The notes: generated by a model from the letters alone, not told the origin. 64,000 nt of DNA from Chloroflexota bacterium (GCA_030447525.1 JAUJOR010000010.1:141113-205112), one strand, 5' to 3'. Shown: positions 4,309-57,871, counted from the first letter of the stretch. Made by a program: numbers and translations.

Positions 4309-4336
4309 CAAGTCCGTAGTTACGTAGTTACGTAGT
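4309..4336. promoter_or_regulatory. AT-rich tandem repeat (GTAGTTAC x3, containing palindromic TACGTA cores) abutting the start codon of the glycoside-hydrolase gene
   Basis: CCGTAGTTACGTAGTTACGTAGTATGG stands out in a 70% GC background. It lies in the divergent SBP / GH intergenic region. Confidence 0.3.
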
Positions 4337-26125: not shown

Positions 26126-26201
26126 CCTGGCCAGGGGGGTGAGTTACAGCCATGCACACGTCTACCGGCTATTGACCGGCGTACGTGAGTACGTGAGTAC
26201 G

Positions 26202-29274: not shown

Positions 29275-29425
29275 AAGGAAGCACTTAGTGGGTCACGTTG
29301 CATTTAACTGGCGATGACCTGACCTGGTGAGCAAACCATTTATCTGCGGGTGGTGATTATATACTTGACGCAGTAGGAAACCTGTGAGACAATGTACTGG
29401 AACAAGAGTCCTAAGGTTGCCTACG

Positions 29426-34533: not shown

Positions 34534-34777
34534 CGCGCCGGGGTTTTTGGCCGGTGCCTGGATCGGCCGGTGCCTGGATCACTCAACGTCCCATCGGAAG
34601 GCCACGTCAGTGGCTGTCTTGAGCACCCCGGGCCACGATCTGTAGTACGCTCGAGCCGCTGTCCGCCCGGGCGCTGAAACGGGGAGACCGCGCCGCACGT
34701 GAGCGGCGGGCGACCGGCGCCGCTTGTGGCCGGCGCTGTCCGGGGGCACAATGCCTCAAGAGAGGGGCACCACATCC

Positions 34778-36115: not shown

Positions 36116-36141
36116 GGCCAAGCCGCGCGACCGCGTAGGAA

Positions 36142-37461: not shown

Positions 37462-37529
37462 GGCACCCGCCTGACGCCCTGGTCCCTGGTGGACGCACCC
37501 ACCTGAATCCTCCAACGGAGAGTACGGCC

Positions 37530-39854: not shown

Positions 39855-39874
39855 TGTTAGTGCAGAATAACACG
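39855..39874. promoter_or_regulatory. Candidate operator: inverted repeat GTGTTA-N8-TAACAC in the divergent SDR / IclR intergenic region
   Basis: Perfect 6-bp arms, AT-rich relative to the 70% GC background, lying just 5' of the IclR gene. Confidence 0.3.
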
Positions 39875-39944
39875 CGTGACAGCCCGTTCAATCCCGGTTA
39901 TTTCGAATGCCGCGCGAAATGGCCAGGCGGAAGGGGACGGCGTC

Positions 39945-40712
39945 GTGCCGCGGGCGCAGACGCGCAGCCTGCAGCGGGGGCTGGCGACGCTGGAGTACGT
40001 GGCGCAGGCGGGCGAGGTCAGCGTGTCGGAGGTGGCGGCGGCGCTGGGGTTGCCCCGCCCCTCGGCCCACATCCTCCTGCGTACCCTGACGGAGGCCGGG
40101 TACCTGCGCCAGGCCCGGCGCCGCGGGCGCTACCGCCCGGACCTGCGCGTGCTACAGGTGGCGCGAGACGTCTTAGCGCGGCTGGCCGTGCGGGAGCGGG
40201 CGGCCCCTCTGCTGCACGAGCTGGCCCAGGCGACGGGGCTCAGCGTCTACCTGGCTGTCCTCGCGCGGGGAGAGGCGATGACGGTAGACCGTGTCGTCCC
40301 CAAGCCCCGCCCGGCGGCGCGGGCGGACATCGGCGTGACCAACCCGGCCTACGCCTCGGCCATGGGCAAAGCGCTCCTGGCGTACCTCCCGCCGGCGGAG
40401 CTGGAGGGCTACCTGACTACGGTGCGCCTGGAGCCGGTGACCGAGCGGACGATCACCTCCGTGGCCGCCCTGCGGCGGGAGCTGGCCCGCGTGCTGGAGC
40501 AAGGCTACGCCCTCAGCGAAGGGGAGCACCGCCCGGGCGTGCGCAGCGTCGCCGCGCCGGTGTTCACCCACACCGGGGAGGCGGTGGCCGCCCTCTGCGC
40601 GCGCCACGACACTCCCGCCAGCGAGCCCCCGCCGGAGGCGCTCATCCGCAGCGTTGTGGAGGCCGCCGAGCGCATCTCGCACACCCTGGGCTACGGCGCC
40701 TTGCTCGAATGA
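39945..40712 (+). CDS. IclR-family transcriptional regulator
   Basis: The N-terminal HTH is SLQRGLATLEYVAQAGEVSVSEVAAALGLPRPSAHILLRTL and the C-terminal domain is the effector-binding domain. The GTG at 39945 is preceded by GAAGGGGA. An alternative GTG lies at 39876. Confidence 0.65.
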   Translation: MPRAQTRSLQRGLATLEYVAQAGEVSVSEVAAALGLPRPSAHILLRTLTEAGYLRQARRRGRYRPDLRVLQVARDVLARLAVRERAAPLLHELAQATGLSVYLAVLARGEAMTVDRVVPKPRPAARADIGVTNPAYASAMGKALLAYLPPAELEGYLTTVRLEPVTERTITSVAALRRELARVLEQGYALSEGEHRPGVRSVAAPVFTHTGEAVAALCARHDTPASEPPPEALIRSVVEAAERISHTLGYGALLE

Positions 40713-40826: not shown

Positions 40827-41877
40827 CTACTTGGGGGCGATCACCGCCTCCACCTGGGCGCGGACGCGGGTCAGCCCGTCCTTCGCCGTGACCACGCCGT
40901 CCCAGATCTCGTTCAGGTTGTTGCCCCGGTAGAGCAGGCGCGCCCCCTGCGTGTCCAGGGTCTGGTTCGGCTGCGTCTGGTGGTTGAAGGACTCCACGAT
41001 CAGCTCCATGTTCGCCGGCGGTTTCCCCTAGTTCGCCGCGATGTAGTCCTTGGCGCAGGTCTTCTTCGCCAGAATGACGTTAGCCGTTGTCGATGAAGAT
41101 GCGGGCGACGTCCTCGTCGGTGAAGAACTGCAGCAAGCGCCAGCCGTTGTCCGGGTGCTTGGCCCCCATCGCCAGGGCGTAGGTCTGGATGCTGGCCTCC
41201 ATCATGCGCTTCGCCGGCATCGGCGTCGGCGTTACGTCCCAGGCGCAGGCGGTGTCGCGGCGCAGGCGGTTGATCGAGCCGGTGTTGGCGAACCACATCG
41301 CCAGCTGCTCGTTGACGAACATGTCGTTCCCCCCCTTGAGCTCGTTCGCCACCTGCCGGGTCGGCTGCACGCGGTGCCGGTTGGTCAGATCGGCGATCCA
41401 CTGCATGGCCTCGTGGCCGGGCGGGTCGGCCAGGGTGAACTGGCGCCCGTCCTTGCTGAAGATCCCGCTGGGGCTGCCGTTGTTCATCGAGAACGTCTGC
41501 TCGTTCCCGGTGTCGACGTAGAGGGAGGCGCCGTAGACCCCCGGTGGGGTCTGGGGGCGAGTCAACTGGCGCGCCGTCTCGACGAGGTCGTCGAACGTCC
41601 AGCCGGAGGGCTCCCACTTTGCCGGAGGCAGGGGGATGCCTCCTTCTTGAACAGGTCGGCGTTGTAGAAGATCAGGCGCGGGTTGGCGCCGAAGAACCAG
41701 GAGTAGTGCTTCCCGTCGTAGACGGGAAAGTCGTAGACGGCGGGAGAGAAGTCCGCGCAACGAATCATCGCCTCCCTCGCGCGCGGCGTTGCCGCCGGGC
41801 GTCCTCGCCGTTCTCGCTGCAGGCGCGCCCAAACACGCGCGAGCGAGGGTCTCCCCGCCCTGCGGCGCCCTGCTCAT
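40827..41877 (-). pseudogene. Sugar ABC SBP, N-terminally truncated and with at least two frameshifts
   Basis: SBP segments occur in three frames (YNADLFKKE; GWTFDDLVETARQL...LAMWFANTG; the C-terminal NEIWDGVVTAKDGLTRVRAQVEAV). No signal peptide is present. Confidence 0.55.
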
Positions 41878-42143
41878 TCCGAATAGCGCCCAGGGTACGC
41901 CGTGGCACCATACCTATCATGTACGGGAAGTATATGAGGTCGCCGGACGAGGGCGTCTGTCGTCTGGCCTTCCCTGCTGCTGTGACCGGCCACAGGGCCG
42001 GTTGCTTCGGAAGAGCGCCGTTTGACCGAGCCGGCGGGCTGAACTACCATGCCGGTCGAGGGGGGCTCGTTTGACGGACTCGCGCGCGGCTGAGGAGCGA
42101 TGTCCCGTTTGAGCCGACGAGATTGACACGGGGAGGGAGCACC

Positions 42144-43529
42144 ATGAGCCCGAAACAGGAACCGGTAGCCAGCACGGTGGGGCGGGCGACCCGCCGCGGG
42201 GTGGTACGCGTCGGCGCCGGGCTGGCCGGGCTCGGCGTCTTCGCCGCCTGCGGGCAGGCGGGGGGCTCTCCCGGGGCGGCCAGGCCGGCGCTGTTCAAGG
42301 AGCGTACGGTGCTGCGCTACCAGAGCTACAAGAACCCCGAGGAGCTGGCCGTCTTCCAGCAGGGCGTGCAGCGCTGGGTGGAGCGCGTCGGCAATGTGGA
42401 GGTCCAGACCGACATCGTCCCCCAGGGAGAGTACATCGAGAAGCTGCTGGTGCGCATCAGTGGGGGCGACCCGCCGGACATGATGGAGGTCAACGACCGC
42501 ATGTCCAGCGACTTCATCATGCGCGGTACGCTCCTCGAACTGACCGACCGCATCAAGCGCGACGGCAAGGAGGTCGACCTCGACGACGTCTTCCCGGCCT
42601 ACCGTGACGTGCTGCTCTACAAGGGCAAGCGCTACGGCATCCCGGACTACTGCGGCCCGACGGTGATGTACGTCAACAAGCTGTTCTTCCAGCAGGCCGG
42701 GCAGCCCCTGCCGGACGACTCCTGGGACTGGGACAAGTTCCTGGAGGTGGGGCGGATCCTCACCAAAGACACCAACGGCGATAAAGTGCCCGATCAGTTC
42801 CTGACCACCAACTCCCTGGGTGGCAGCCCCTCCTGGACGCCGATGCTGTGGTGGAGCTTCGGCGGCGACATGATCAAAGGGCCGGGGCCGCACCATCCGA
42901 ATGAGACGGAGTGGCTGCTCGACCGCCCGCCGGAGACCGCCCGGGCCAACGCGGCGGCGGTGGAGTACTGGGGTTCGCTCATCTACCGGCACAACGTCAT
43001 CCCGCAGCCGGGGCAGCGGGGGGACTTCCAGCGCACAGCCAACATCGCCACCGAGATCGCCGGGCGCTGGCTGGTGCCCATCTACCGCACGCTCGACTTC
43101 GTGCAGCAGGGCTACCTGACCATGGTGCTGCCGCCCAAGGGGCCCAAGGGACGCAAGGTGCGCAACTCGACCTTGAACGCCACCATCCCGATCAACGCCA
43201 AGCGCCCGGACGAGGCGTGGGAGCTGGTCAAGTTCCACACCGGCCCGGAGGGCATGTCGGTGGCGGTGGAGGGCCAGCGCACCAACTCCACCCGCAAGAG
43301 CGTGATGGAGGCGTTCAAGAAGTCCCTCCTGCCGTGGGAGAGCTATGACGTCTACGCCAAGGCCAACGAGCTGTTCACGCAGCCGATGCCCATGACCTAC
43401 AACTGGACGCTGGCGGAGCGGACGCTCAGCGATGGCTTGAACGCCGCCTACCGGGGCGAGAAGTCGGCCGGGCAGGCGCTCAAGGAACTCCAGGTGCAGC
43501 TCGACGAGCTGATGAAGCGCGGCCTGTAG
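42144..43529 (+). CDS. ABC transporter sugar-binding protein (Tat-lipoprotein)
   Basis: The ATG is preceded by GGAGGG. The signal is RATRRGVVRVGAGLAGLGVFAACG. Confidence 0.8.
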   Translation: MSPKQEPVASTVGRATRRGVVRVGAGLAGLGVFAACGQAGGSPGAARPALFKERTVLRYQSYKNPEELAVFQQGVQRWVERVGNVEVQTDIVPQGEYIEKLLVRISGGDPPDMMEVNDRMSSDFIMRGTLLELTDRIKRDGKEVDLDDVFPAYRDVLLYKGKRYGIPDYCGPTVMYVNKLFFQQAGQPLPDDSWDWDKFLEVGRILTKDTNGDKVPDQFLTTNSLGGSPSWTPMLWWSFGGDMIKGPGPHHPNETEWLLDRPPETARANAAAVEYWGSLIYRHNVIPQPGQRGDFQRTANIATEIAGRWLVPIYRTLDFVQQGYLTMVLPPKGPKGRKVRNSTLNATIPINAKRPDEAWELVKFHTGPEGMSVAVEGQRTNSTRKSVMEAFKKSLLPWESYDVYAKANELFTQPMPMTYNWTLAERTLSDGLNAAYRGEKSAGQALKELQVQLDELMKRGL

Positions 43530-43935: not shown

Positions 43936-45246
43936 TCAGCCGCCGAGCAGCGCGGTGACTTCGCGCTCGATGTTCAGCGCGGCGTCCCTGGCCGAAATCT
44001 TCTGGTCGAGCAGGTCGGCGCGCTGGCGGGAGACGATGGCGTTCATCTCGTCCCAGGGCTTGACCAGCGGCTGCTGCTTCGCTTCCTTGGCGGCGTCCAA
44101 CCAGCGCTGCTTGTTGAGGTTCAGCACGTTGCGCTGCAAGAAGACGGTCTCCGCCACCGGCCGGTACCCGGGGATGTCGAACCCCCCGGCTCGCTCGACG
44201 TACGTGGCGCCCTCCGTCCCGGCGAAGGCCATGAATTCCCACGCCGCATCCTTTACTTTGGAGCTGGACCACATGGCGTAGCAGTCGGTGTACCAGCGGT
44301 GGAAGCGGGGCTTGGGGCCGATGGGACGGAGGACGAGCTCCGGCTGGAAGTCGAGGTTCTCCCACTGGGCCAGGATGTACGGACCGGCGTTGCCGAACAC
44401 CGCCTGCCGCCCGGCCCGCCACATGTCCACGCCCTGCGGTCGGTCGCCGCCGGTGCGGCGGGGCTGCACCCGGTGCGTGTGGGTGAGGTCGGACCAGAAC
44501 TGCAGCGCCTGCGACCCGCCGGGCGTCTGGTTGACCACGCTCTTCTTCTTGTCTTTGTCGAGGAACTCTGCCCCGAAGTCCCACCACAGGGGCCACGTCT
44601 CGGTGTAGTCGACCCCCCAGGTGTCGAGGTTGCCCTGAGCGTCCTGCTTGGCCACACGCTTGAGCACGTCCAGGAAGTCCTGGTGGGTCCAGGTCTTGTC
44701 GAAGTCCGGCCTGAGCGTCACCCCCGCCTTGTCCAGCAGCGCGCGGTTGATCGCCAGCACTCCGGCGCCCCACCCCTGGCTCACGCCGTACAGTCTGCCG
44801 CCCACTGACTGCTCGTCTATGGCCAGGGGGTAGAACTGCTCCGTCTTGAGCTTGGAGCGAGTGTAGAGCGGGGTGAGGTCTGCGAGCCCGCCAGCGCTCT
44901 GGAAGGGGATGATCCGCCGGGTGGTAGTCCAGATCACGTCGGGCGCCGACCCGCCGGCGAAGGCGGTGATCAGCTTGGCACCGTAGTCCGTCTCCGACCC
45001 GGAGTCGTTCGTCGCCTCAATCTTGTGATGGGGGAATCGCTTGCCGTACTCCGTGGCGGCGGCCTGCACCTTCTCCCATCCCGCCTGGTACAGGTTGCAC
45101 CAGTAGACGATCGTGGCAGGACCTCGGCCGGCACCCTGGGCAGGCTCGTCCTGCTGTGTCCGATCGGCGGCACACGCCGCTGCCAAGCTGCTCCCGGCCA
45201 CCGCCAGCATCGCCAGCACCGCTCGCCGCGTCGTGCCCTGCGCCAT
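43936..45246 (-). CDS. ABC transporter sugar-binding protein (Tat-lipoprotein)
   Basis: TRRAVLAMLAVAGSSLAAACA signal, with a full-length SBP fold. Confidence 0.8.
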   Translation of the reverse strand: MAQGTTRRAVLAMLAVAGSSLAAACAADRTQQDEPAQGAGRGPATIVYWCNLYQAGWEKVQAAATEYGKRFPHHKIEATNDSGSETDYGAKLITAFAGGSAPDVIWTTTRRIIPFQSAGGLADLTPLYTRSKLKTEQFYPLAIDEQSVGGRLYGVSQGWGAGVLAINRALLDKAGVTLRPDFDKTWTHQDFLDVLKRVAKQDAQGNLDTWGVDYTETWPLWWDFGAEFLDKDKKKSVVNQTPGGSQALQFWSDLTHTHRVQPRRTGGDRPQGVDMWRAGRQAVFGNAGPYILAQWENLDFQPELVLRPIGPKPRFHRWYTDCYAMWSSSKVKDAAWEFMAFAGTEGATYVERAGGFDIPGYRPVAETVFLQRNVLNLNKQRWLDAAKEAKQQPLVKPWDEMNAIVSRQRADLLDQKISARDAALNIEREVTALLGG

Positions 45247-45318
45247 ATCCACCATACCCTCCTTACGCCGCGAGTAGCGCACGCGCCGGTGCTGCTGTCA
45301 ACCTCTGCCGAGCGGGCG

Positions 45319-46485
45319 TCAGTCCGCGGCGGGCGGGGCCACGGGGGCGGTCTCCCAGGCCGCCGCCGCGGGCGACGCTTCCCACGCCGCCAGATCGAGC
45401 AGGCCCAGGCCGCGCCCGTACCCCGCCTCGTCGCCCTGGCGGTTGACCATGAATGCCAGCCAGCGCCCGTCCGGGCTGACGTTAGAGTTCGTCGCCCGCC
45501 AGGGGAAGCGCTCCACCATGCGTGTCAGGCGCACCCGCCGGCCCGAGCCGTCCAGCTTGAGCTTCCAGAGGTCGATGTTCTGGCCGTACGGCGGCGGCGT
45601 GTCCACGGAGCACTCCAGGCAGATGTGCTCGTGGTCGGGGAAGATCCCCTCGCACTCGTTGTGCACCCCGCCCTCGTACACGTACGTGCGCACCGCTCCC
45701 GTCTCCAGCTCCACGCCCTTCACGATGCACTTGGGCCGTGGAGACCCCCCCTCCCCTCCCACGTGGCGGTGGCGCACGTACTCGGCCATGATCACCTCCG
45801 CGTCCTCGCGTCCGCCGCGGTGGCGGAAGTCCTGCGGCTCAGGCGCCAGGTTGCTGCCGGACTCGGCGCGGTAGATGACGCGGTCTGCTCCCAGCCGCGC
45901 CACGCCGCCCTGCCCGCACTCCAGATCGGTCACGTGGCACTCGAACACGTCGGGCGCGCCGAGTGAGGGGTCGTTGCGTCCGCTCACCGCATAGGTGATC
46001 CGAGGCGCCACGGCCGAGACGCCGATGCCCTCGAAGATGCGCCGACCCAGCGGCAGCGGCGGGCGCAGCGCGCGAGCGTCCATCCACCACAGCTCGGACT
46101 CGACGCGCCGGCTGGTGTCGCGGTCCTTGAACTCGGCCGGGCCGATGAGCAGATAGTCGCCGGTAGGCAGGAACAGGACGCGCAGGAACGAGTGGAAGGT
46201 ACCCAGGTCGCGCGTAAGGTGGCGCAGCGCCCGTGTCTCGAGGTCGATCTCGCAGACGTCGCCGTAGTTCTTCTCGATGAACGCGATCCGCCGCCCATCG
46301 GGAGACCAGGCGGGGCGTTCCCCGAAGTCGGTCAGCTTCTGGTGCCAGGGAGGCGGGTCGTCCAGCGGGTGGGGTGTGCCCGGCGCGTCCGGCTGGTTGG
46401 GCCCGGCATACCCTGTGAAGTCGGGCGATGGCCATGCCCTGGCCGTCAGTCCGGCCCGGTCGTGCTGGGGGGGCTGTTGCGTCAT
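45319..46485 (-). CDS. TolB/PD40-like beta-propeller protein, possibly an oligogalacturonide lyase (PL22-like)
   Basis: 388 aa, the same length as PL22 Ogl. It has SPDGRRIAF / SPDGRWLAF propeller repeats and a His/Cys/Glu-rich central region. Confidence 0.4.
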   Translation of the reverse strand: MTQQPPQHDRAGLTARAWPSPDFTGYAGPNQPDAPGTPHPLDDPPPWHQKLTDFGERPAWSPDGRRIAFIEKNYGDVCEIDLETRALRHLTRDLGTFHSFLRVLFLPTGDYLLIGPAEFKDRDTSRRVESELWWMDARALRPPLPLGRRIFEGIGVSAVAPRITYAVSGRNDPSLGAPDVFECHVTDLECGQGGVARLGADRVIYRAESGSNLAPEPQDFRHRGGREDAEVIMAEYVRHRHVGGEGGSPRPKCIVKGVELETGAVRTYVYEGGVHNECEGIFPDHEHICLECSVDTPPPYGQNIDLWKLKLDGSGRRVRLTRMVERFPWRATNSNVSPDGRWLAFMVNRQGDEAGYGRGLGLLDLAAWEASPAAAAWETAPVAPPAAD

Positions 46486-46547
46486 TCCTGTCCCTCGTGC
46501 GGGTGGTGTCGTGGGTGCCTCTGGGCCGGCGCCCGCCGGTCATCGGA

Positions 46548-48152
46548 TCAGGGGAGCGCCTCGTAGGCGGGCAGCGTCAGGAACTCCGGGAAGTCCTCCG
46601 CCATCGCCACCTGCTCGAACACGCGCGCCGCCTCGTCGAGCCGGCTCTTGGCGACCAGCGCCGCACCCCACGCCCCGCGCAGCTTCTGGACCTCATCCTC
46701 CTGGAGGCGACGCACCAGGTCGCGCGTGACGGCGGGGCCCTCCTCGAGCCGGACGCCGTGGCGGACCCACTGCCAGACCTGCGCGCGCGAGATCTCGGCC
46801 GTGGCGGCGTCCTCCATCAGGTTGTTGATCGCCGCCGCACCCACGCCGCGCAGCCAGGATTCGATGTACTGGACGCCGACGCTGATGTTCGTCCGCACGC
46901 CGGCTTCGCTCACCGCGCCGCCGGGCACGGCGAAGTCAAGGAGGTCGGCAGCCGTGACGCTCACCTCCGGGCGCTGTTTCCCGAGCTGGTTGGGACGGTC
47001 GCCCAGGGCCTGGTCGAACACCTCGAGGGCCACCGGTACCAGATCGGGGTGTGCCACCCAGGTGCCGTCGAAGCCGTCGCGCGACTCGCGCTCCTTGTCC
47101 TCGCGCACCCGCGCCAGCGCGAGCTCGTTCACCTGCGGGTCGCGCCGGGAGGGGATAAAGGCGGCCATGCCGCCCATGGCGAAGGCCCCCCGCCGGTGGC
47201 ACGTCTTGACCAGCAGCTCGCTGTAGGCGCGCATGAACGGCACGGTCATGCTCACCTGCCCCCGGTCGGGCAGGACCTTGTCCGGCCGGTTCCGCAGCTT
47301 CTTGATGGCGCTGAAGATGTAGTCCCAGCGCCCGGCGTTGAGCCCGGCCGAGTGGTCCCGCAGCTCGTAGAGGATCTCCTCCATCTCGAAGGCCGCCGGC
47401 AGCGTCTCGACCAGCACCGTCGCCTTGATGCTCCCCTGGGGGAGGCCCACCCGCTCCTGGGCGAAGACGAAGACCTCGTTCCAGAGCCGCGCCTCGAGAT
47501 GACTCTCCAGCTTGGGCAGGTAGAAGTACGGCCCCGAGCCGCGATCCAGCAAGCGCCTGGCGTTGCGGCAGAAGTAGAGACCGAAGTCGAAGAGGCTCGC
47601 GCTCACCGGCCGCCCGTCCACCAGCAGGTGCTTCTCGTGCAGGTGCCAGCCGCGCGGCCGGACGAGCATAGTGGCCACCTGCTCGTTCAGCCGGTACACC
47701 CGGCCGTCGCCCTGGTCGAAGGAGATGGTGCGCTCAATGGCGTCGGTGAGGTTGATCTGCCCTTCGATCAAGTTCTCCCACGTGGGAGCGAGCGAGTCCT
47801 CGAAGTCCACCATGTAGCCGGGGGCGCCGGAGTTGAGCGCGTTGATCATCATCTTGCGCTCGACAGGGCCGGTGATCTCCACGCGCCGATTCTGGAGGTC
47901 GGCCGGCACCGGCGCCACGCGCCATTCCGCTTCGCGCACGCTGCGGGTCTCGGGCAGGAAGTCCGGCAGGCGGCCGGCGTCGAACGCCTCCTGCCGCTCC
48001 GCCCGGCGCGCGAGCAGGCGCTCCCGCGCGGGACCGAAGCGGCGCTGCAGCTCGGCGACGAACGCGAGGGCCTCGGGCGCGAGCACCTGTGCGTGGCGCT
48101 CGCCGACCGGGGCGCGGAGCTCGATCCCGGGTGCGCTGGACAGCTGAGTCAT
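46548..48152 (-). CDS. aceB: Malate synthase A
   Basis: 534 aa that align along their length with the malate synthase A family (for example [33 protein letters not shown] and the [17 protein letters not shown] catalytic region). Confidence 0.85.
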
Positions 48153-48189
48153 CTGAAGCTCTCCTTGTACGGGTGCGGCGGGGAACGCC

Positions 48190-49335
48190 TCACGCGCCCC
48201 CTAGGGGCAGGGGCACGCTCTGGCCGGTCTCCACCGAGCGGTAGGCGGCGAGCACCAGCTCCAGGGACCGGCGCCCTTCTTCGCCCGGCACCGGCACCGG
48301 GCGCCCCTCGGCGATGGCGCGCAGGAGCGCGTCGATGGCCCCGGCGAAGCCACGGGGCGGCTGGGCCCCGGCGCCGGAAGGGGGCTGGAGCTGCACCTCC
48401 ACCGTCCCGTACAGCGGCGGCAGCCCCGCGGTCAGGGCGGCCCCGCCGGGCTCTGCCGCCGAACCCTCCAGCAGGGGCCGGGCGCTCTTGTAGGAGAAGA
48501 CGCGGATGCGGTCCTCCAGGTCCATCTGGACGGAGCCGTCCTCGCCGAAGAGCTGCAAGGGCATCAGGCCCCAGTTGGCGGCCATGCGCGGGTCGCGCAG
48601 CACGTACGACACCGTGCTTTCGGCGATGGCGCCGTTCCGGAACCGCAGCAGCACGATCCCGCTGTCTTCCGTGCGCCGGCTTTCCCCCAGCAGCCGGCTG
48701 GTGCCGGCGATGGCGGAGACGCTCTCCACGTCCCCTAGGAGCCAGCGCAGCATGTCCAGGGTGTGGATGGCGATGCCCCCGATCACGCCGTCGTGCTTCC
48801 AGTACGTCCGCTTCCGCCCGGGCTCCATGTGCTCCCAGGAGTAGGTGATGTCCTGGGGATACGCGCTCTTGGCCACGATAGGGCGCCCGATAACGCCCGC
48901 CTCGATCAGCTCCTTGATCTTCTGGTGGCGCGGCTCGAAGCGCTTGGTCTGGTCGACCATCAGCTGCACGCCCGCCTCACGCGCCGCGGCGATCATCGCG
49001 TCCGCCTCGTCCAGCGTGTTGGCGATCGGCTTCTCGACGAACACGTGCTTGCCGGCGCGTGCCGCCCCGATGGAGACCGGCGCGTGCAGGTCGTGGGGCA
49101 GACACACGTCCACCACGTCGACGTCGTCACGCGCCACCGCCTCCTCCCAGGAGGTCTCCCACCGCCCGGCGCCGTAGCGCCCGGCTGCCCGCTGCGCCAC
49201 CTCCGGACGCAGGTCCACGCACGATACCAGCCTCGCCAGCGGGTGCTCCTGGTACGCGGCAAGATGCGATCCGGAGACGCCGCCGCAGCCGACGACGCAC
49301 ACCCGCAGCGGCCGCGGGTCTGTCTGTCCCATCAC
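48190..49335 (-). CDS. Gfo/Idh/MocA-family NAD(P)-dependent oxidoreductase
   Basis: It has an N-terminal Rossmann fold ([16 protein letters not shown]) and the EKP motif (HVFVEKPIA). Confidence 0.8.
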
Positions 49336-49350
49336 GAATGCCCTTCCCGT

Positions 49351-50250
49351 CTACCGCGCTCCCGCGCTCGTCGGCACGGGCGCCGTGGCCCCATCGTCTG
49401 TGTTGGCGAGCACGCTCTTGAGGTACCCGACCGCCCAGGCCGTGCCGATCTCCTGCCGGCGCTCCGGCTCCACTTTGGGCAGGTGCTCGGGGCAGATGGG
49501 GCCGGCGTACCCCAGGTCGCGCAGCGCGCGCAGGCAGCGGTCCGGACGCACCTCGCCGTCGCCGAGGAACACCTCCTCGGTCTCCGCGTCCGGCGTCCAG
49601 GGCCGCTGGGTCATGCGCACGTCGCGCACGTGGACGAAGAAGATGCGCTCCAGCAGCGGGCGCGCGGCGCGGATCACGTCGTCGCCGGCCATGTGCAGGC
49701 AGCCGAAGCAGAAGACGAGGCCGTTCTCGGCGTCGGGCACGGCGTCGAAGAGCGAGTCGAACTCGCGCTCGCCCCACAGCCCCTTCTCCGGCGGCCAAGG
49801 GCTGTGCGTGGCCAGGCGCACGCCGGCCCCGCGGGCTCGCTCGCAGGCGCGGGCGTAGAAGTCGGCGTTGCGCGCGAACTGGTCGGCCGCCTCCTGCCCC
49901 GTCCGCGCGCCGTCGAGCGGCGGGTGCAGCGTGACCGTCGGGATGCCGGCCTCCCCCGCCGCGTCCAGCGTGCGGGCGAAGGCTTCGAAGTCGCGCCGTC
50001 CATCCTCGGTTTCGGGCATCGCCCAGCCGCACGACTCGCGCACCGGCGCCAGCGCCACCACGGCGATCCCGGCGTCGTCGAAGCGCCGCCGGTGCGCCCG
50101 CAGCTCCGGGCCGCTGGGGTAGCCCCGCTCGGCCGCCGCCGGGATGGTGGAGGCCGCCTCCTGCACCGCGTCGAAGCCCACCTGGCGGCAGTAGCGCACC
50201 CGTGCAGCCGGTTCGTTGGTGACCATCCCTGCCTTCAGCGTGATCTGCAC
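49351..50250 (-). CDS. Xylose-isomerase-like TIM-barrel protein (sugar phosphate isomerase/epimerase; distant similarity to mannonate dehydratase UxuA)
   Basis: The GTG start at 50250 is preceded by GAAAGGA. AP-endonuclease-2-like TIM-barrel motifs are present (FVHVRD, HSPWPP). The longer upstream ORF-track extension is not supported. Confidence 0.5.
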   Translation of the reverse strand: MQITLKAGMVTNEPAARVRYCRQVGFDAVQEAASTIPAAAERGYPSGPELRAHRRRFDDAGIAVVALAPVRESCGWAMPETEDGRRDFEAFARTLDAAGEAGIPTVTLHPPLDGARTGQEAADQFARNADFYARACERARGAGVRLATHSPWPPEKGLWGEREFDSLFDAVPDAENGLVFCFGCLHMAGDDVIRAARPLLERIFFVHVRDVRMTQRPWTPDAETEEVFLGDGEVRPDRCLRALRDLGYAGPICPEHLPKVEPERRQEIGTAWAVGYLKSVLANTDDGATAPVPTSAGAR

Positions 50251-50288
50251 TCTTGGTCCTTTCTCGTTTCTCGTCTTCCTGGGTCTGT

Positions 50289-52997
50289 TCAGCGTGTAGC
50301 CGTGGCGAGTGCCGCCGCTTGGCGCAGGAGGTAGTAGGGGCGGCCGGTCAGGTCGGGTCCCAGGCCTGGCGAGAGCCACGCGGCGCCTTGCGCACCGCGC
50401 ACGTCGAAGAAGTACTGGAGTGGGTACGGCGAGTCGGTGTACGCGGCGGGGATGGCGGCCCGGTAGCCATCGCCGTTGCGCTCCATCTCCACCACCTCGT
50501 ACCGCTCGGCCTGGTTCGCGTGCCGGTAGTGGAGGCGCACGCCCGCGACCTGCTCCTCCTGGGCTCCGTCCGCCGCCACGCGGATCGATACCGCCTCGCC
50601 CCGCCGAAACGGTCCCGGCGGCGTGTGGGCGAGCGGGCCACCGCGGCGCGCTATTTCCAGCTCGGCCAGCGTGACGGGAGCACGACTCGTCGTCTGGCCA
50701 GGCTTGCCACCTCCAGCGGCGGCGCCGTCCAGCAGGCCGGTCATGGCGGCCGCGTCCTCGTCGATCGCCGCCAGGCGATCGCGCCAGGTGCCGCGCAGCC
50801 AGTGATCCGGCCCGAAGGTCAGGTCGTCCAGGTAGACGGCGTCGCCGGCCGCCGCCGCGGCGGCGAACGCGGCGCGGGCGTCCCCGTACGCGGCCAGCCC
50901 TTGCTCCAGCAGGGAGCGGGAGCCGGTCCGCTCGTACAGCGCGTGCGCCGTTCCGGCGCGCAGCTTGGCGGCGAAGAAACGTCCCAGCGCCGCCTGGATC
51001 GTGACGTCTGTCTGCCAGCGGCGGGATTCCGCGTCCGCGTTAGGGTCGCCACCGGCGCCGGTCACGGGAGCTCCGGCCGTCCAGCGGCCGAGCGCCGCCT
51101 CCGCCGTCGCCGCCAGCTGGTCTAGCCAGCGCGCCACGTCGAGGGGCGAGTACCGCCCGCTTGGCTGTCTGGCGATGGATTCGTCGGCGAACTGCTCCAC
51201 GGTGGAGAAGAGCGCCGGATCGAGCGGGCTGACGGTGCCGAACCGCTTTGGCGCAGGGGTGTCGCCGTACGGCCGCGCCGGCATGGGCGCCACGATGGGG
51301 ACGTCGGTGTACATCTCGGGCCAGTAGTGGTAGTTCGCCGCCGACGGATGGTGGGCGACGGTGATCAGCGGCAGGATGCGTGACGCGCTGGCGAGCGCCT
51401 CCTCGGCCGCGGGCGCGTTCTGGCCGAACTGGCGGCGCAGCGTGCGGCGCCACTGGTCCGGGTCAGCGTCCGGGTTATAGAGGCACCGGCCCAGCAGCCG
51501 GTACGTGTAGCGGTACTTGGCCCAGTCTCCCTGCGGCGACTGGAGCGATTCCTGCGCATAGCCGCCGCGGTGCCCCGGCACGCCGGAGCCCTTGCGCCCC
51601 TTGAAGGAGAGCGGCTCGAAGAACTCGGTGCCGAGCGCGCCGCCGAACTGCGCCGCGCGCCCATAGCCGGCGGCGAAGCGGGGATCGCCCCACAGCAGGA
51701 GGCGCTGGGTGCCGGGCCAGACGCGCCAGATCAGGCCGTACTCCCGGTCCTCGCGCAGCACGTCGCCGTAGCCGTAGCGGATGAAGCGGCGCAACGCCTC
51801 GGAGAGCGCCATCCACCGGCCGTGATCGCCCGTGGGCTCGCGGGGCTGCTCCAGCTCGCGGATCTCTGCCTGGTGGTAGGGCAGGCCCAGGTGCTCCGCC
51901 CAGTACTTGGGCGAGACGTTCACGCCCGCGCCCGTGCCGGCCGCGAGGGCGTTGCCGATCATGCGCTCGTCGATGCCCTTGGCGTGCAGGTCCAGCTCCA
52001 CCGGGCGGCCGCACGAGGCCACGCCCTCGAACACGGTCTTCCAGAAGTCGTAGGACTGCTCCGGCACGCCGCTCTCGCCGTGGATGCGGAAGGTGACGCC
52101 GTCGATGGTGGGCACCTCCTGGAGCAGCAGGCGCACGGCGTCGCGGCAGTATGCGGCGTGCGTCTCGTTCGTGAGGCCTTCGATGGTGTGGTTCGCCTCG
52201 GGCGAGTCCTGCCACTGGTAGGCGTGGGTCCACAGGCCGAGCTGGAAGTGCAGCCCGCGCCGCTTCACCTCCTCCCCGATGAAGCGCAGCGACGCCAGGT
52301 TGCGCTCCCGCTCCCCCTCCGGCAGGGCCGTGACGCGCACGGCAAAGCCCGGTACCTCCAGGAGGAAGGGGTAGGGGAAGTAGAAGTACGCATCCTGGAT
52401 GGTCCGTGGGAAGTCGTAGCCCAGCCCCAGCGCCAGGTTGAAGCGGTTGAACCGGTGCGTCACCAACTCCGTCAGGTACGTCGCCCACCAGGAGCGGTCG
52501 TGGAACCAGCCTTTGTCGTGGACGTCGCTGGAGAACAGACGCATGATGCTGCGCACGGCGTTGGCCGGGCGCTCGACCACGGGGCCGGGCACGTCCAGCG
52601 CGGCGAGGGGGTCGCCGGCATGCCGCACGCGGTCGACAAGCTCCAACAGGGCATAGACGAGGCCACGCGCGTCCGCGCCGGCGGCCAGGGTGACCGGCCG
52701 GCCGTTGGCGCTTCCGGTGGCGAGGGCCAGCGCCTCGGGCTCGACCGGAAGCGCCGCGCCCACCGCGGTGAGGAGGTCGCGGGCGGCACGTGATTCGGGG
52801 CCGCCCGCGAGCACGACGCGGCCGCGCGCGGACGCTGGAATCCCCCTGCTGGTCTGCGCCGCAACGCCGCGCCGCCCCAGGGCTTCACGCAGCTCGGCGG
52901 CGGCCCAGCCGACGGCGGGCGCCGCCGCGGTGGGTTCTGCCTGATCCAGGACGATGGTGACGCTGCCGGCGGCGGTTTCGGTCACGGCTGTCTCCAA
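50289..52997 (-). CDS. Large (902 aa) glycoside-hydrolase-like protein, with a GH20/GH67-type N-terminal alpha/beta domain plus a TIM barrel; the family is unresolved
   Basis: One intact long ORF, the first gene of a minus-strand operon ending with the SBP at 43936. Trp-rich barrel motifs occur (GLWTHAYQW). It is cytoplasmic, with no signal peptide. Confidence 0.3.
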   Translation of the reverse strand: METAVTETAAGSVTIVLDQAEPTAAAPAVGWAAAELREALGRRGVAAQTSRGIPASARGRVVLAGGPESRAARDLLTAVGAALPVEPEALALATGSANGRPVTLAAGADARGLVYALLELVDRVRHAGDPLAALDVPGPVVERPANAVRSIMRLFSSDVHDKGWFHDRSWWATYLTELVTHRFNRFNLALGLGYDFPRTIQDAYFYFPYPFLLEVPGFAVRVTALPEGERERNLASLRFIGEEVKRRGLHFQLGLWTHAYQWQDSPEANHTIEGLTNETHAAYCRDAVRLLLQEVPTIDGVTFRIHGESGVPEQSYDFWKTVFEGVASCGRPVELDLHAKGIDERMIGNALAAGTGAGVNVSPKYWAEHLGLPYHQAEIRELEQPREPTGDHGRWMALSEALRRFIRYGYGDVLREDREYGLIWRVWPGTQRLLLWGDPRFAAGYGRAAQFGGALGTEFFEPLSFKGRKGSGVPGHRGGYAQESLQSPQGDWAKYRYTYRLLGRCLYNPDADPDQWRRTLRRQFGQNAPAAEEALASASRILPLITVAHHPSAANYHYWPEMYTDVPIVAPMPARPYGDTPAPKRFGTVSPLDPALFSTVEQFADESIARQPSGRYSPLDVARWLDQLAATAEAALGRWTAGAPVTGAGGDPNADAESRRWQTDVTIQAALGRFFAAKLRAGTAHALYERTGSRSLLEQGLAAYGDARAAFAAAAAAGDAVYLDDLTFGPDHWLRGTWRDRLAAIDEDAAAMTGLLDGAAAGGGKPGQTTSRAPVTLAELEIARRGGPLAHTPPGPFRRGEAVSIRVAADGAQEEQVAGVRLHYRHANQAERYEVVEMERNGDGYRAAIPAAYTDSPYPLQYFFDVRGAQGAAWLSPGLGPDLTGRPYYLLRQAAALATATR

Positions 52998-53049
52998 TGG
53001 TGCGCCGGTTCGGGGGCGACGGTGTGAGGCTGCGTGGCCACGGCGGCCG

Positions 53050-54492
53050 CTACATGCCGCCGGCGTTGGCCTGGGTGAGCTGCGTGTTCTCGCGGATCAG
53101 GTCCTCGAGCTGCGGCTTGATTGCCGCCGCCATCTGCGCGGCGGCGGCTTTTCCGGTCAGCAGCTCCTTCTGGTAGGCGTCCGCGATCAGCTTGTCCATG
53201 TCCGGGAACTTGATGATCTCGTGCTCGGGGTGGCTGAACTTCTCGGCCGCGTCGACGAACACCTTCCAGTCCTGCTTGGCGCCTGGGGTGAGCCATGCCT
53301 CGGACAACGCCACCTTCCGGTTGGCCGGCAGCCCCCGGTGCAGCTCTGCCATCGCTTTCTGGCCAGGCTCCCCGGCCAGATACTCGATCAGCTGCCAGGA
53401 GTCGTCCGCCTTCTTGGCGCCGTTGTTCTTGGAGATGGTGATGTTCAGCTGCGGGTTGCGCGTCCAGGGCTGGGTCGTCCGCCGCGGCGTGGGAGCGATA
53501 TCCCAGTGGAGATCTTTCTGCGCCGCGAGCGTGGGGGCCGCCGACGTGATGGAGGCGAACATGCCCAGCTTGCCGGCGAAGAGCATCCCATTGGTGCCGC
53601 CCTGCGTCAGCCGCCGGTCGTCCGCAGTGGGGTTCACCTTGTGGCGCAGGCGCAGGTCGGCCACCCACTGGAAGGCCTCCACCACTGGCCTGGTGTCGAT
53701 CTGCACCTTGGTGTGGTCCTTCGAGAGCAGCTCGCCGCCGTTGGACCAGATGAAGGGCTGCACCGACCACCAGCTGTCGCCGTTGTCATAGCCGAACGTG
53801 GACTGCTCCGGGGACGCGCCCACCTTGGAGAGCCTGCGCGCGGTCTCGAGCAGTGCCTCCCACGTCCACCTGGGGTCGTCCCACTTGTGGGGCGGCTCGG
53901 CGACGCCAGCCCTGGCGAAGACGTCCTTGTTGTAGAAGATCACCAGCGGCGAGTGCGTCAGCGCCAGCGCCAGCACCTTGCCGCGGAAGACGTTCTTGCT
54001 CCATTCCAGTGGGAAGATGTCTTCCTTCTTATAGGTCCTGGAGCGCTTGACGTACTCGTCCAGCGGCAGGAACGTGTCTTTGACCGCCCAGGCAGCCAGG
54101 TTCTTCGTCGTCCACATCATGACCTCAGACTCGCTGCCCGCGGCCAGGAGCGTGTTCATGCGGGTGAAGTGGTCGCCGTCGGGGTTGGTCCGGTATGGCT
54201 CGACGGTGATGCGCCCGCTCTGCCGGCTGAAGTCCTCGCAGAGCTTGTTCCAGATAGCGGCCTCGGCCTCGCTGGCGTAGTAGCCGTACTGGAGCGTCAC
54301 CGGCCCCGTCTGCTTCGGCGCAGTGAGGCCGGCGCCGCGCTCCTGCCCGCACGCGGCCAGCAGGGGAAAAGTAAGCGTCCCGCCCGTGCCAATCCGTGCC
54401 AGAAAGCGGCGCCGGGACAACCCAATTGCGTGGTGGACAGACTCGGATCCGCCGCGCGGATCGTCGGTCGGCTCCGGCATGGCCTTCGGCAT
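53050..54492 (-). CDS. ABC transporter sugar-binding protein (Tat-lipoprotein)
   Basis: SRRRFLARIGTGGTLTFPLLAACG signal, followed by the SBP fold. Confidence 0.8.
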   Translation of the reverse strand: MPKAMPEPTDDPRGGSESVHHAIGLSRRRFLARIGTGGTLTFPLLAACGQERGAGLTAPKQTGPVTLQYGYYASEAEAAIWNKLCEDFSRQSGRITVEPYRTNPDGDHFTRMNTLLAAGSESEVMMWTTKNLAAWAVKDTFLPLDEYVKRSRTYKKEDIFPLEWSKNVFRGKVLALALTHSPLVIFYNKDVFARAGVAEPPHKWDDPRWTWEALLETARRLSKVGASPEQSTFGYDNGDSWWSVQPFIWSNGGELLSKDHTKVQIDTRPVVEAFQWVADLRLRHKVNPTADDRRLTQGGTNGMLFAGKLGMFASITSAAPTLAAQKDLHWDIAPTPRRTTQPWTRNPQLNITISKNNGAKKADDSWQLIEYLAGEPGQKAMAELHRGLPANRKVALSEAWLTPGAKQDWKVFVDAAEKFSHPEHEIIKFPDMDKLIADAYQKELLTGKAAAAQMAAAIKPQLEDLIRENTQLTQANAGGM

Positions 54493-54736: not shown

Positions 54737-55640
54737 GGAGGCTAGGGTTCAATCGTGACGATCTCCCACGTCCGCAATTCCGGCACCACTAGGAGGCCGT
54801 CGCGCACTTCCAGGTCGCGCCGGAGCGCACGGGCGCGCGCTTGCTTCGCCCCGCCGCCAACGCGCAGGCGCAGATCCCGGATGGGTAGGACATCGTGCCG
54901 CACGCCCACCCCGCTGGCCGTATGCAGCGGGAGCGGTTACTCCCCTCCGGGCCGCTGATGTGAGTCTGACGCATCGCCGCTAGGAGCGACCCGGCCCAGC
55001 TCCTGGCGCACGATCCTTGCCCCCGCCACGAGCGTCCGCAGCTTCAGCTCGGCGTTCACCAGCTCCGCCAGGTCAGCCGCGATCTCGAACCGGTCCCGGT
55101 ACGGGCCGCCGTCGGGCTGGATCTGCAGCGCGAACATCAGCGGCCCGGGGCAGGTCACCTTCAAGGGCCGGTCGGTCAGCGTGCGCGCCAGGGCGTACTC
55201 CTCGACGATGCCCAGGCCGGCGGCGGGGAGCGGCCGGGCATCTTCCTGCTCCTCCTGGGGACGCAGCATGATGCGGTCGACGGCGCGATACTGGGGCACC
55301 ATGTCGTAGCCGGCCGAGCCGAGCTTACGCGCCACGCCCAGCGGCTGGAGCCCGGCCAGGCAGCCGTAAAACCCCTGCACGAAGTGCAGCCGGCGCATCT
55401 CGCCGTCGCTGATCACGTCGACGCCGGCCTGCTCCATGTCCTGCATCGCCAGGCGCGTGGCGTCGGCGTAGAGCTCCTCCAGGTCGGTGGGGCCGAACTC
55501 GCCCCGCGCCACGGCCTGGCGCGCGACGTGGAGCCAGCCGGGGATGCCGTGGCTGCCGACGACGGTCACCGGCAGGAGCGGCAGCGGTGGGAGGGATGGC
55601 TGCAGCGACGTGGCCCCGGATGCGGCGGCCTCCGTCACGC
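54737..55640 (-). pseudogene. Cobalamin-independent methionine-synthase-like (MetE C-terminal-domain family) protein, frameshifted
   Basis: The N-terminus LPLLPVTVVGSHGIPGWL and most of the barrel are in one frame. The C-terminal segment (GVGVRHDVLP...LVVPELRTW) continues in another frame. Confidence 0.45.
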
Positions 55641-56911
55641 CTCCACACCGTAGCGCTTGATCACGTCCTGGTTGAGCTCCACGCCCAGGCCGGGCTGCTG
55701 TGGGACCGGCAGGCAGCCGTCGGGCTCGATCTTGAACGGCTCGGCCAGGATGTGGTGCGGCACCATGCTGCCGGCCTCGGCGTCGTAGGCCGTCCGCTCG
55801 CGGGTGGACGAGCGCTGCCTGCCGGGCGGGAAGAGCGTGCACTCCTGTGGGCCCCGCGCGTTCGGGACCGCCGCCACCAGTTGCAGCGTGGCCGCCATGC
55901 CGACGTGGATACTAGCCCGGATTATTCACGGGGTTGAGACCGCCCAGATCACAGCGGCCCTTGTGTCTACATGAGCCACCAGGAGGGAAATGGCCCTGTC
56001 TCAGGCACCGTTCCAGGAGTAGCTGGGCTAGCACCGTTACCGTGTATGAATAATCCGGGCTAGTGTCGTGCGGCGTGAACGCCTTGCTGAACGCCTCAGC
56101 CAGGTGCGCGACCTTCTGGCAGGTCAGCAGCCCGCCCGCCTTGATGGGGTCCGGCTGCACCACCTCGCACGCGCCGCGGACGATGGCGTCCTTGTAGCGC
56201 CAGAGCGAGAAGTCCTCTTCGCCGAAGGTGATGGGGATGCTAGTGTGGTGGTTGACGTACGCCAGCGCATCGAGGTCGCGCTCGGGCACCGGCTGCTCGA
56301 GGTGCAGCACGTTGAACGGCTCCAGCGCCTGGCACATGCGCACCGCGCTGGGTGCGGACCACGCGCTGTTCGCGTCCAGCAGCAGGTCGACGCCGTCGCC
56401 GACGGCGGCGCGCACCGCGCGCACACCGTCCAGGGTGGTGTCCGGGCGGGCGTCGAACCCCTGGCGGGTGGAGACCTGCAGCTTCAGAGCGGTGAAGCCG
56501 GCCTCCACCGCCTGCGCCGCGAGATTCGCCTGGGCCGGCGGCGTGTCGCGCGCGATGGTGAGGTACACGCGCACCCGGTCGCGGTAGGCGCCGCCGAGCA
56601 GCTGGTGGACGGGGACCCAGCGCCTTGCCCTTGAGGTCCCACAGCGCCAGCTCCAGGCCGGAGAGGGCGCACATCTGCAGGCGCCCCTCCAGCTTGTAGG
56701 TGCCGATGGCCAGGCGCTCGTGCAGCGCCTCGATGCGCAGCGGGTCTTGCCCAACGGCCAGCGGCGCGAGCGAGTGCTTGAGCGCGGCCACGATCAGCGG
56801 TGCGCTCATCGGGCTGGCCTCGCCGACGCCCGTGACGCCCTCGTCGGTTTCGACCCGTACCAAGACGTAGCGGTCCGCCAGCACGATGGGCGTGACGCGG
56901 GTGATCTTCAC
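55635..56911 (-). pseudogene. Enolase-superfamily (mandelate racemase / sugar-acid dehydratase) gene, interrupted by a MITE and carrying a frameshift near 56630
   Basis: The N-terminus VKITRVTPIVLADRYVLVRVETDEGVTGVGEASP has a GTG start overlapping the upstream stop. The frame changes after WDLKGKALG. The body reads ...VAHLAEAFSKAFTPHD, then the 154-bp element, and the authentic C-terminus IHVGMAATLQLVAAVPNA...GLGVELNQDVIKRYGVEA resumes at 55910. Confidence 0.7.
55911..56064. mobile_element. MITE-like non-autonomous element with 18-bp perfect terminal inverted repeats (ACTAGCCCGGATTATTCA)
   Basis: 154 bp, AT-richer than its flanks. Removing exactly these bases fuses ...FTPHD to IHVGMAATLQLV... 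in frame, restoring a canonical enolase-superfamily C-terminus. Confidence 0.7.
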
Positions 56912-57588
56912 TACTTCACCATGTCCAGCAGGTTCTGGGCCTCGGACGCGGCCTGGCTCAGCGCGTCCTTCACGCCGACCTTGCCGTCGAGGACGCTCTC
57001 CACCGCCTTGTTGATCACCTTGCTGATGTCGTCCCAGGCGGGGCTCTGCGGCATGGCCTGCGACCCTTCCAGGTTCTTGAGCACCACGTCGCTCCAGTAC
57101 GGGTTCAGATCGCGATAGGCCTTCTCCTCGTTGAACTTGCGCACCGCCGCCGGCCGTTTCTGGGCCAGGAGCGCCTTGCGCGCGCCTTCCTCGAGGCTGA
57201 TGTACTTGAGCAAGGTCCAGGCGGGCTCGTGCTGCTGACTGGCCTGCGGGATGGCGTACACCCAGACGTAGTTGGCGACCGTCTTCGACTTCGCCTTGGC
57301 ATTCTTCGAGTTGTACGGCGGCACGGCGGCGCCCAGCGGGAAACCGGGCTCCTCCTCGTCGATGCGAAAGAACATCGAGACGATCTCGGCGCACATGTCC
57401 TCCACCAGCTTGGTGCGCACGCCGTCCCATTCGTGGAAGAGCTCCAGCGTTACCGGCGCGGTGGACGCGGCGCCGCCACCGGGAGCGCCGTCCCTCTGGG
57501 CGCCGCAGGCCGTCCCGAGCAGCGCCAGGAAGCCACCGCCTGAGGTCAGACTGACGCGCAACAAACGCCGCCGTGTCGCCATCGCCAT
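56911..57588 (-). pseudogene. Sugar ABC SBP with an internal deletion (about 200 aa missing)
   Basis: The signal peptide (MAMATRRRLLRVSLTSGGGFLALLGTACG) and the SBP C-terminal tail (PAWDDISKVINKAVESVLDGKVGVKDALSQAASEAQNLL) are joined in a 225-aa ORF. Confidence 0.5.
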
Positions 57589-57871
57589 CCCTCCCCCAGT
57601 CCTTTATGCCGTTCCGGCATCTGGCCACATCCAGTGAGTGTCCGGCGCGGATGCGCCTCCATAACGCCGCTCCTACGACTTCGATATGGTGGTTATTCGG
57701 AACGGGACTACAGGGAATCCATCCTTCTGGAGACCGACTTGAACCTGCCAGATCGGCAATCTTAGGCGTGGCGGCGACGGACCTCGCGCTCGCTGCATCT
57801 CCGTCGGGCGCGACCGGCTCCGTGGCAGTCGGCCGGCACGCCGTCCACGGTCGGTCGGCTGCCAGGTGCGG

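Follow-up and report, generated by a model that had tools for sequence, protein, structure and literature searches.

A malate synthase gene within a string of carbohydrate-catabolic genes in an uncultured Chloroflexota bacterium

The DNA analysed here is a stretch of 64,000 nucleotides from a Chloroflexota bacterium (GCA_030447525.1, JAUJOR010000010.1:141113-205112), which we call the window and whose positions we count from its first letter. It is approximately 70% G+C, and its proteins are closest to those of uncultured Chloroflexota. A gene for malate synthase (MS) lies in this window within a tightly packed string of genes of the kinds used in carbohydrate breakdown (positions 43936-54492). 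An earlier reading, made from the sequence alone, had taken the position of MS as a sign that the pathway encoded by the string yields glyoxylate, which MS would then condense with acetyl-CoA.

Results

A packed string of seven genes

The string was mapped by listing open reading frames (ORFs), following third-position GC, and scanning against Pfam and NCBIfam. In their order on the minus strand, the seven co-directional genes are:

53050-54492, minus strand: SBP1, a solute-binding protein (SBP) of the SBP_bac_1 type and a lipoprotein (PF01547/PF13416); opens the string
50289-52985, minus strand: 898-aa protein, a GH138-like hydrolase candidate, with a GTG start at 52985 and no match in the Pfam and NCBIfam scans
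49351-50250, minus strand: UxuA-like TIM barrel of the xylose-isomerase fold (here TIM), with a GTG start at 50250 (PF01261 and partial PF03786)
48190-49332, minus strand: NAD(P)-dependent sugar oxidoreductase of the Gfo/Idh/MocA family (here Gfo; PF01408/PF02894/PF22725)
46548-48152, minus strand: malate synthase A (MS; TIGR01344; MS_N, MS_TIM-barrel and MS_C domains)
45319-46485, minus strand: PD40 beta-propeller, matching PD40 repeats only
43936-45255, minus strand: SBP2, a solute-binding lipoprotein (PF01547/PF13416); closes the string

All seven genes lie where the sequence-only reading had placed them, and the short gaps it described are there too (64, 38, 18, 37, 62 and 63 nt in gene order, the TIM-Gfo gap shrinking to 15 nt if Gfo begins at the GTG at 49335). 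The TIM gene likely starts at the GTG at 50250, because the start of the longest ORF (50379) would overlap the preceding gene. A GGAG-type ribosome-binding site stands ahead of every gene; for MS it is AAGGAG, 8 nt ahead of an ATG that lies 37 nt past the Gfo stop codon. The ATG of SBP1 (54492) is preceded by AGAGGAGG and its N-terminus (RRRFL...LLAAC) resembles those of lipoproteins and of substrates of twin-arginine translocation (Tat). The ATG of SBP2 (45255) is preceded by TAAGGAGGG, and its N-terminus is likewise Tat/lipobox-like.

Promoters or terminators between the genes, which would have spoken for separate transcription, were sought in all gaps of the string, and no promoter-like or terminator-like site was found. 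None of the intergenic regions of the string folds better than its own shuffled controls, and a search of the window against Rfam gave no riboswitch or other known RNA. The string terminates where a convergent plus-strand SBP gene (42123-43529) starts. With a leader of 37 nt, MS could have a promoter of its own only within the coding sequence of Gfo. From this packing we infer that MS is probably co-transcribed with the carbohydrate-catabolic genes around it.

Identity of the malate synthase

Judged by its sequence, MS is a canonical malate synthase A, as had been proposed. It scored 809 bits against TIGR01344 (cutoff 594.5, thus approximately 215 bits above it), and the three Pfam domains span the whole protein. 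Among proteins of known structure, it matched 3cux with 688 bits and the E. coli malate synthase A (MSA) structure 3cuz with 605 bits. Residue-level alignment to 3cuz showed that the motifs RPRGWH, VETLP and GRWDY and one further 11-residue motif are kept, and that the catalytic Arg and Asp and the Mg2+-ligand motifs are conserved at matching positions. We take the catalytic and Mg2+ residues of the E. coli enzyme to be Arg166, Glu250, Asp278 and Asp447. A divergent or neofunctionalised MS was rejected on the TIGR01344 score and the conserved catalytic motifs.

The best relative of MS in species-representative genomes is 78% identical and comes from an uncultured Chloroflexota metagenome-assembled genome (MAG; CADCTC010000001). 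The window's MS shares 78-81% identity with MS genes found in other contexts, and 64-69% with those that adjoin isocitrate lyase (ICL).

Neighbours of malate synthase in relatives

The gene neighbourhoods of MS were compared across 80 species-level relatives (60-78% identical). These loci, like those collected below for the 898-aa and propeller families, carry labels of the form L001. ICL was sought by tblastn with a single ICL sequence as probe. It lay directly adjacent to MS in 31 of the 80 relatives; a further match to the probe, in L004, was 31% identical and belongs by Pfam to the ICL/PEP-mutase family. The same probe found nothing in the window, which has no aceBA(K)-type adjacency. At the other 49 loci the commonest neighbours were GlcD-like FAD oxidases (7), CCG, Amidohydro_1 (5), HIUase/transthyretin and glycerate kinase, which are classical glycolate and ureide sources of glyoxylate. 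Because the neighbours across the 80 relatives are mostly glyoxylate producers, the position of MS appears to follow, as a tendency, the source of glyoxylate.

In three genomes with the closest relatives of MS (73-80% identical), MS lies behind genes of the sugar dehydrogenase/lactonase type and not beside ICL. In two of them, L089 and L001, the order is zinc-dependent alcohol dehydrogenase (Zn-ADH), apionate lactonase (PF25837/PF25838), MS, with 13 nt between lactonase and MS in L089. This string sits with a GH140-type apiosidase, a GHMP kinase, an epimerase and an SBP, and in L089 also with a LacI gene; no RuBisCO-like protein or DUF1537 kinase was found within 10 kb in either locus. In the third, L002, two Gfo genes, an Amidohydro_2 gene and an unknown ORF are followed after 29 nt by MS. 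The Amidohydro_2 family includes sugar lactonases. Within the clade of the window's MS, then, linkage of MS to oxidative sugar genes appears to have arisen repeatedly.

At both apiose-type loci (L089 1-11605, L001 290-11599) MS is the last gene of the Zn-ADH/apionate-lactonase string. The cluster may represent an undescribed D-apiose route ending in glyoxylate and malate.

Module partnership in relatives

The other genes of the string recur together in relatives. SBP1 and 898-aa homologues are adjacent in L082/L084 (84% and 73-76% identical, respectively) and again in L087/L088 (55% and 56% identical). L084, the one locus found in a scan of metagenome contigs with the 898-aa protein, has the same arrangement as L082 and ends just after the gene. 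The trio of 898-aa, TIM and Gfo genes recurs in L081 (78, 85 and 85% identical). In Actinopolymorpha pittospori a propeller homologue comes directly after a protein of 860 aa that shares 46% identity with the 898-aa protein, and in L093, from another Chloroflexi MAG, a member of the propeller family has Gfo, IclR and UxuA-like genes close by. The propeller-SBP2 pair itself is found in L094 at 94.6% nucleotide identity to the window. By these neighbourhoods, the SBP1, 898-aa, TIM, Gfo and propeller families are one module, with MS sitting between its members; that MS lies within one module follows from the propeller family adjoining an 898-aa homologue in Actinopolymorpha.

In L081 the TIM gene lacks approximately 320 nt of its 5' part (L081 5766-5878 against window 50320-49892), leaving 181 aa compared with 299 aa. 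Given this truncation, the module may be decaying in that genome.

Candidate functions of the module proteins

The 898-aa protein has more than 3,700 homologues, which share 53-58% identity across phyla (Chloroflexota, Verrucomicrobiota and Acidobacteriota). A copy at least 90% identical (P0361) lies on a 10.3-kb Logan contig. The AlphaFold2 model of the window's protein (pLDDT 82.6) gave the glycoside hydrolase (GH) family 138 protein BP0997 as its top five Foldseek matches (E 2e-26, TM 0.56-0.72), and GH67/GH115 alpha-glucuronidases as the next. By sequence, the comparison with GH138 gave E 0.12 for the single sequence and E 5e-9 for the family profile, the profile match spanning two partial stretches at 13-15% identity. 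GH138 is the alpha-galacturonidase of rhamnogalacturonan-II chain A (PMC13501991). The 898-aa model shares its fold and multi-domain layout with the GH138 proteins BT0997/BPa0997 (PDB 6hze/6hzf/6hzg), which are of similar length; the window protein differs from them in being predicted to be cytoplasmic, in lying outside any polysaccharide utilization locus, and in being 13-15% identical. We regard it as a candidate distant, cytoplasmic uronidase-like hydrolase. The earlier label of a GH-like protein can now be narrowed to GH138-like; from the GTG start the protein has 898 aa, against the 902 aa of that reading.

Genes of the 898-aa family often have an SBP gene as partner. The family, for which Pfam has no model, may represent a new family of glycoside hydrolases.

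The TIM subfamily is rare: of 1.84 billion cluster representatives, 7 reached E<=1e-30. Its profile matched mannonate dehydratases best (1tz9/3ban/4eac, E 6e-33 to 3e-28), followed by IolE and IolI, and the match to the UxuA structures was limited to the C-terminal ~170 residues. Against the UxuA NCBIfam model TIM scored 35 bits (cutoff 191). On these scores TIM is related to UxuA and not a member of that family. A role as a 3-keto-glycoside eliminase was considered and rejected: the TIM profile matched 3-keto-glycoside eliminases/hydratases at E 1e-6 to 1e-3, and UxuA is far closer (E 1e-33). Pairs of a Gfo/Idh/MocA dehydrogenase and a xylose-isomerase-fold partner are known from levoglucosan breakdown by LgdA/LgdB (PMC7676230) and from the beta-eliminases of O- and C-glycosides (PMC10628242). 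The window has the same pairing of folds, with the genes side by side, and differs from these systems in that its TIM is nearest to the UxuA dehydratases. Gfo itself lies below all NCBIfam equivalog cutoffs (its best models were IolG, levoglucosan dehydrogenase and the Gfo6 xylose dehydrogenase), and its best PDB match was the WlbA-type 3q2k.

The propeller had been read as resembling polysaccharide lyase family 22 (PL22), a label that we rejected. No PL22 Pfam match was obtained at E<=0.001, and a profile search of the PDB returned TolB-type PD40 repeats only. Foldseek searches with its AlphaFold2 model (pLDDT 87) matched TolB, the PL22 enzyme Ogl and Drp35/SMP30 lactonases alike (TM ~0.3-0.45), 3pe7 being one of many such fold matches (TM ~0.42); PL22 is thus no closer than TolB or the lactonases. 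Members of the family share 60-70% identity across Chloroflexota, Actinopolymorpha and Paenibacillus, and the numerous His, Glu and Asp residues that are invariant among them suggest a metal-dependent enzyme. This cytoplasmic protein could be a lactonase or a lyase.

Other genes of the window

Further features of the window that bear on the string are:

39861-40712, plus strand: IclR regulator (HTH_IclR and IclR_C), approximately 3 kb beyond the end of the string
38791-39597, minus strand: glucose-1-dehydrogenase-type short-chain dehydrogenase/reductase (SDR), passing the subfamily cutoff and divergent from the IclR gene
37464-38705, plus strand: lactaldehyde-reductase-like iron-dependent alcohol dehydrogenase (Fe-ADH), adjoining the SDR/IclR pair
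58958-60073: intact enolase-superfamily acid-sugar dehydratase, arabinonate/galactarate dehydratase-like
54937-57603, minus strand: gene fragments between a PGA_cap gene and SBP1
2680-4392 (minus), 22206-23864, 34703-36115 and 36139-37461 (all plus): SBP genes
41080-41877 (minus, a fragment), 42123-43529 (plus), 43936-45255 and 53050-54492 (both minus), ~62900-63999 (plus): SBP genes, including those of the string
15849-16655 (minus), 27663-28710 and 29369-30103 (both plus): transposase fragments (DUF772, DDE_Tnp_1, IS1595)

The IclR protein is a candidate regulator of the operon. Among NCBIfam models it comes closest to PcaR/PcaU, BhcR, IclR and KdgR, without reaching the cutoff of any, and the propeller locus L093 likewise has an IclR gene at its flank. 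The Fe-ADH shares 43% identity with a different Fe-ADH that recurs near MS in L089, L090 and L001. With at least nine SBP genes in 64 kb, the window has an unusual density of 'orphan' SBPs, and neither a permease nor an ATPase of the ABC type turned up in those of its ORFs that were scanned. The fragments at 54937-57603 comprise a MetE-like N-terminal piece, an enolase-superfamily C-domain without its N-domain and a 225-aa ORF without matches; other genes fill the corresponding interval in L082/L084, and the fragments probably represent pseudogenes in a part of the genome that is in flux. The window also holds two sulfatase genes, the gene for the PGA_cap protein and a GH1-like gene.

An AMP-binding (acyl-CoA ligase-like) ORF (24347-26125, plus) overlaps a ketoacyl-synthase ORF (25800-27485, plus) by approximately 325 nt in different frames, which could reflect a frameshift or over-extended starts. 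At 16804-19281 (plus) lies a gene for an 825-aa protein with DUF7133/ScyE-like propeller repeats and a C-terminal spondin domain (NF038123, 135 bits); it is followed by the divergent GH1-like gene.

Discussion

The reading that we favour, with a probability of approximately 0.45, is that the seven genes form a single transcription unit through which an acidic glycan fragment is taken up and degraded in the cytoplasm, and that this lineage recruited a canonical MS to it, which would capture the glyoxylate arising from a two-carbon (C2) fragment. SBP1 and SBP2 would capture the substrate, probably a glycan fragment containing uronic acid, for a permease encoded elsewhere. The GH138-like hydrolase would then free the acid sugar, and Gfo, the propeller and the UxuA-like dehydratase would convert it to a 2-keto-3-deoxy acid. 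Cleavage by enzymes encoded outside the window would give the C2 fragment (glycolaldehyde or glycolate, and from these glyoxylate), and MS would form malate from glyoxylate and acetyl-CoA. The enzyme families of the window (uronidase folds, a UxuA-like TIM, Gfo, a propeller that may be a lactonase, enolase-superfamily dehydratases and a glucose-1-dehydrogenase-type SDR) would suit the initial half of a Dahms-type (non-phosphorylative) or oxidative acid-sugar route. These families, the embedding of MS and the contexts of MS in sister genomes lend partial support to the earlier proposal that the pathway yields glyoxylate.

A number of observations weigh against this reading, and most of them would be expected if MS were a passenger, dropped between Gfo and the propeller by a recent rearrangement, that owes its co-transcription to its position alone, serves general assimilation of glyoxylate or C2 units and has no chemical link to the module. 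Such roles for MS include the glyoxylate shunt and the salvage of glycolate or ureides. Among the loci compared, the placement is unique to the window: no MS was seen in the seven other distinct contexts of the 898-aa gene (L081, L082/L084, L083, L085, L086, L087/L088 and L092), none was seen in two further propeller-only contexts (L093 and L094), and no 898-aa, TIM or propeller homologue was found in the 80 MS loci. L081, the nearest copy of the trio, has neither MS nor propeller; its nucleotide homology to the window stops exactly at the Gfo stop codon, and unrelated SBP genes come next. The ancestral locus of the MS clade lies elsewhere, since the closest relatives (L089, L001 and L090/L091, 78-80% identical) share a downstream block of PhyH, Fe-ADH, an unknown gene and an Lhr helicase that the window lacks, and the flanks of the window's MS have no homology to these loci outside the coding sequence. 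The transposase and gene fragments indicate genome flux and mobile-element activity. Among the window ORFs scanned there was no aldolase (DHDPS, HpcH or Eda-type), as the sequence-only reading had noted, and no Aldedh-type dehydrogenase, GlcD-type oxidase or ICL, so that the window holds no glyoxylate-making step; to our knowledge, no uronate route yields glyoxylate. The L094 contig opens in the MS-propeller spacer, 13 nt past the position of the MS stop codon, so it cannot show the upstream genes, and over the first 17 nt its sequence departs from that of the window (L094 1-67 against window 46486-46552). This break is uninformative alone; it is compatible with, and hints at, variation of the MS-propeller junction between strains. 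Insertion scars around MS were also considered and rejected, as we found neither flanking repeats that would mark an insertion nor flanks in common with relatives. On this comparison the placement of MS is real but lineage-specific, the product of local rearrangement or recruitment. Comparing the operon across relatives, as the sequence-only reading had suggested, thus upheld the partnership of the module and not the conservation of MS within it; the rearrangement that it had named as a counter-explanation stands, with aceB next to aceA in 31 of the 80 broader relatives. Two points speak against a passenger. An insertion into a compact operon that leaves short gaps and good ribosome-binding sites at either end is likelier to persist when co-expression brings a benefit, and MS genes of the same clade lie behind sugar dehydrogenase/lactonase genes in three other genomes, which argues against pure chance. 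We consider the passenger explanation a serious possibility, if not the one we would choose.

Two other explanations were considered. The Gfo-MS or the MS-propeller junction could be an artefact, arising in a chimeric MAG contig assembled from strain variants. The window was indeed assembled from a metagenome, one 211-kb NCBI contig carries both MS and the 898-aa protein in exact form, and the independent contigs that cover 53447-50124 (L083) and 46535-43912 (L094) do not span the MS junctions, L094 breaking at one of them. Set against this, base composition and GC at third codon positions are uniform across the junctions, the reading frames, ribosome-binding sites and gaps are clean, and neither junction has a repeat prone to mis-joining, which together make an artefact very improbable. 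Alternatively, MS might here condense acetyl-CoA with another 2-oxo-aldehyde or 2-oxo-acid supplied by the module. The unusual gene context is the sole argument in favour; the margin above the MSA cutoff, the conservation of every catalytic and Mg-binding motif, and the high identity to MS genes both in other contexts and beside ICL make such a change of substrate scarcely credible.

The suggestion that the chemistry may be novel was drawn from the absence of an aldolase within a 64-kb window, and for that reason we do not uphold it; aldolase-free routes are known, and Watanabe et al. (2019, Sci Rep 9:155) reportedly described one, Route III, which leads to glycolate. A bolder version of the reading we favour, in which the module encodes a hitherto uncharacterised pathway that breaks down a rare acidic sugar of plant or algal walls, with aldolase-free release of the C2 unit and MS as its dedicated last step, seems unlikely to us. 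Were it true, it would imply, together with the apiose-type clusters, that a clade of Chloroflexota uses MS as a general C2 sink and not for the glyoxylate shunt. If the coupling of MS to the module is real in the form we favour, abundant uncultured soil Chloroflexota would have an undescribed route from a glycan acid sugar to glyoxylate, and sugar catabolism would join ICL, glycolate oxidase and ureide degradation as a source of glyoxylate linked to MS. The coupling would also give a functional handle on the GH138-like family, the rare UxuA-like TIM subfamily and the PD40 propeller. If MS is only a passenger, the locus is a case of routine operon shuffling in a MAG.

How does the string compare with known systems that contain MS? 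In E. coli, glcDEFGB encodes glycolate oxidase and malate synthase G, and aceB1 of Streptomyces lies in an allantoin cluster. In both, MS is co-transcribed with its own glyoxylate-making enzymes, independently of ICL, and GlcD-like and ureide-type neighbours of this kind occur among the relatives of the window's MS. The window differs in that its MS neighbours are a GH-like protein, a sugar oxidoreductase, a dehydratase-like TIM and a propeller, with no recognisable glyoxylate-forming enzyme.

The Dahms-type pentose route runs through a dehydrogenase, a lactonase, a dehydratase and 2-keto-3-deoxypentonate (KDP) aldolase, with oxidation of glycolaldehyde to glyoxylate and a final step by malate synthase. 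Its counterparts in the string would be Gfo as a candidate dehydrogenase, the dehydratase-like TIM for sugar acids, the propeller as a possible lactonase, and MS at the end of the route, and the window also has enolase-superfamily genes of the arabinonate/galactarate dehydratase-like kind upstream. The string differs in its dehydratase, which is UxuA-like where that of the Dahms route is of the IlvD or enolase type. Neither KDP aldolase nor genes for the oxidation of glycolaldehyde or glycolate were found among the window ORFs scanned, nor was a hydrolase of the FAH type.

D-apiose, a rare sugar of plant walls, is broken down by an oxidative route of which one branch yields glycolate. Clusters for its catabolism were reportedly described by Carter et al. 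(2018, Nat Chem Biol 14:696). At the apiose-type loci L089 and L001, MS (79-80% identical to that of the window) follows the apionate lactonase and Zn-ADH genes beside the GH140-type apiosidase, and all that these clusters have in common with the window is an MS behind sugar dehydrogenase/lactonase genes. A tblastn search of the window with the proteins of the L089 cluster matched MS, the SBPs and the 43%-identical Fe-ADH only, and gave no apiosidase, apionate lactonase, kinase or RuBisCO-like protein. The linkage of MS to catabolic operons that produce glyoxylate is already known; its proposed link to GH138-like, UxuA-like, Gfo and propeller genes would be new, and is seen, as gene context, in one lineage. 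The module families themselves, and the MS-terminated apiose-type clusters of sister genomes, are the more promising leads.

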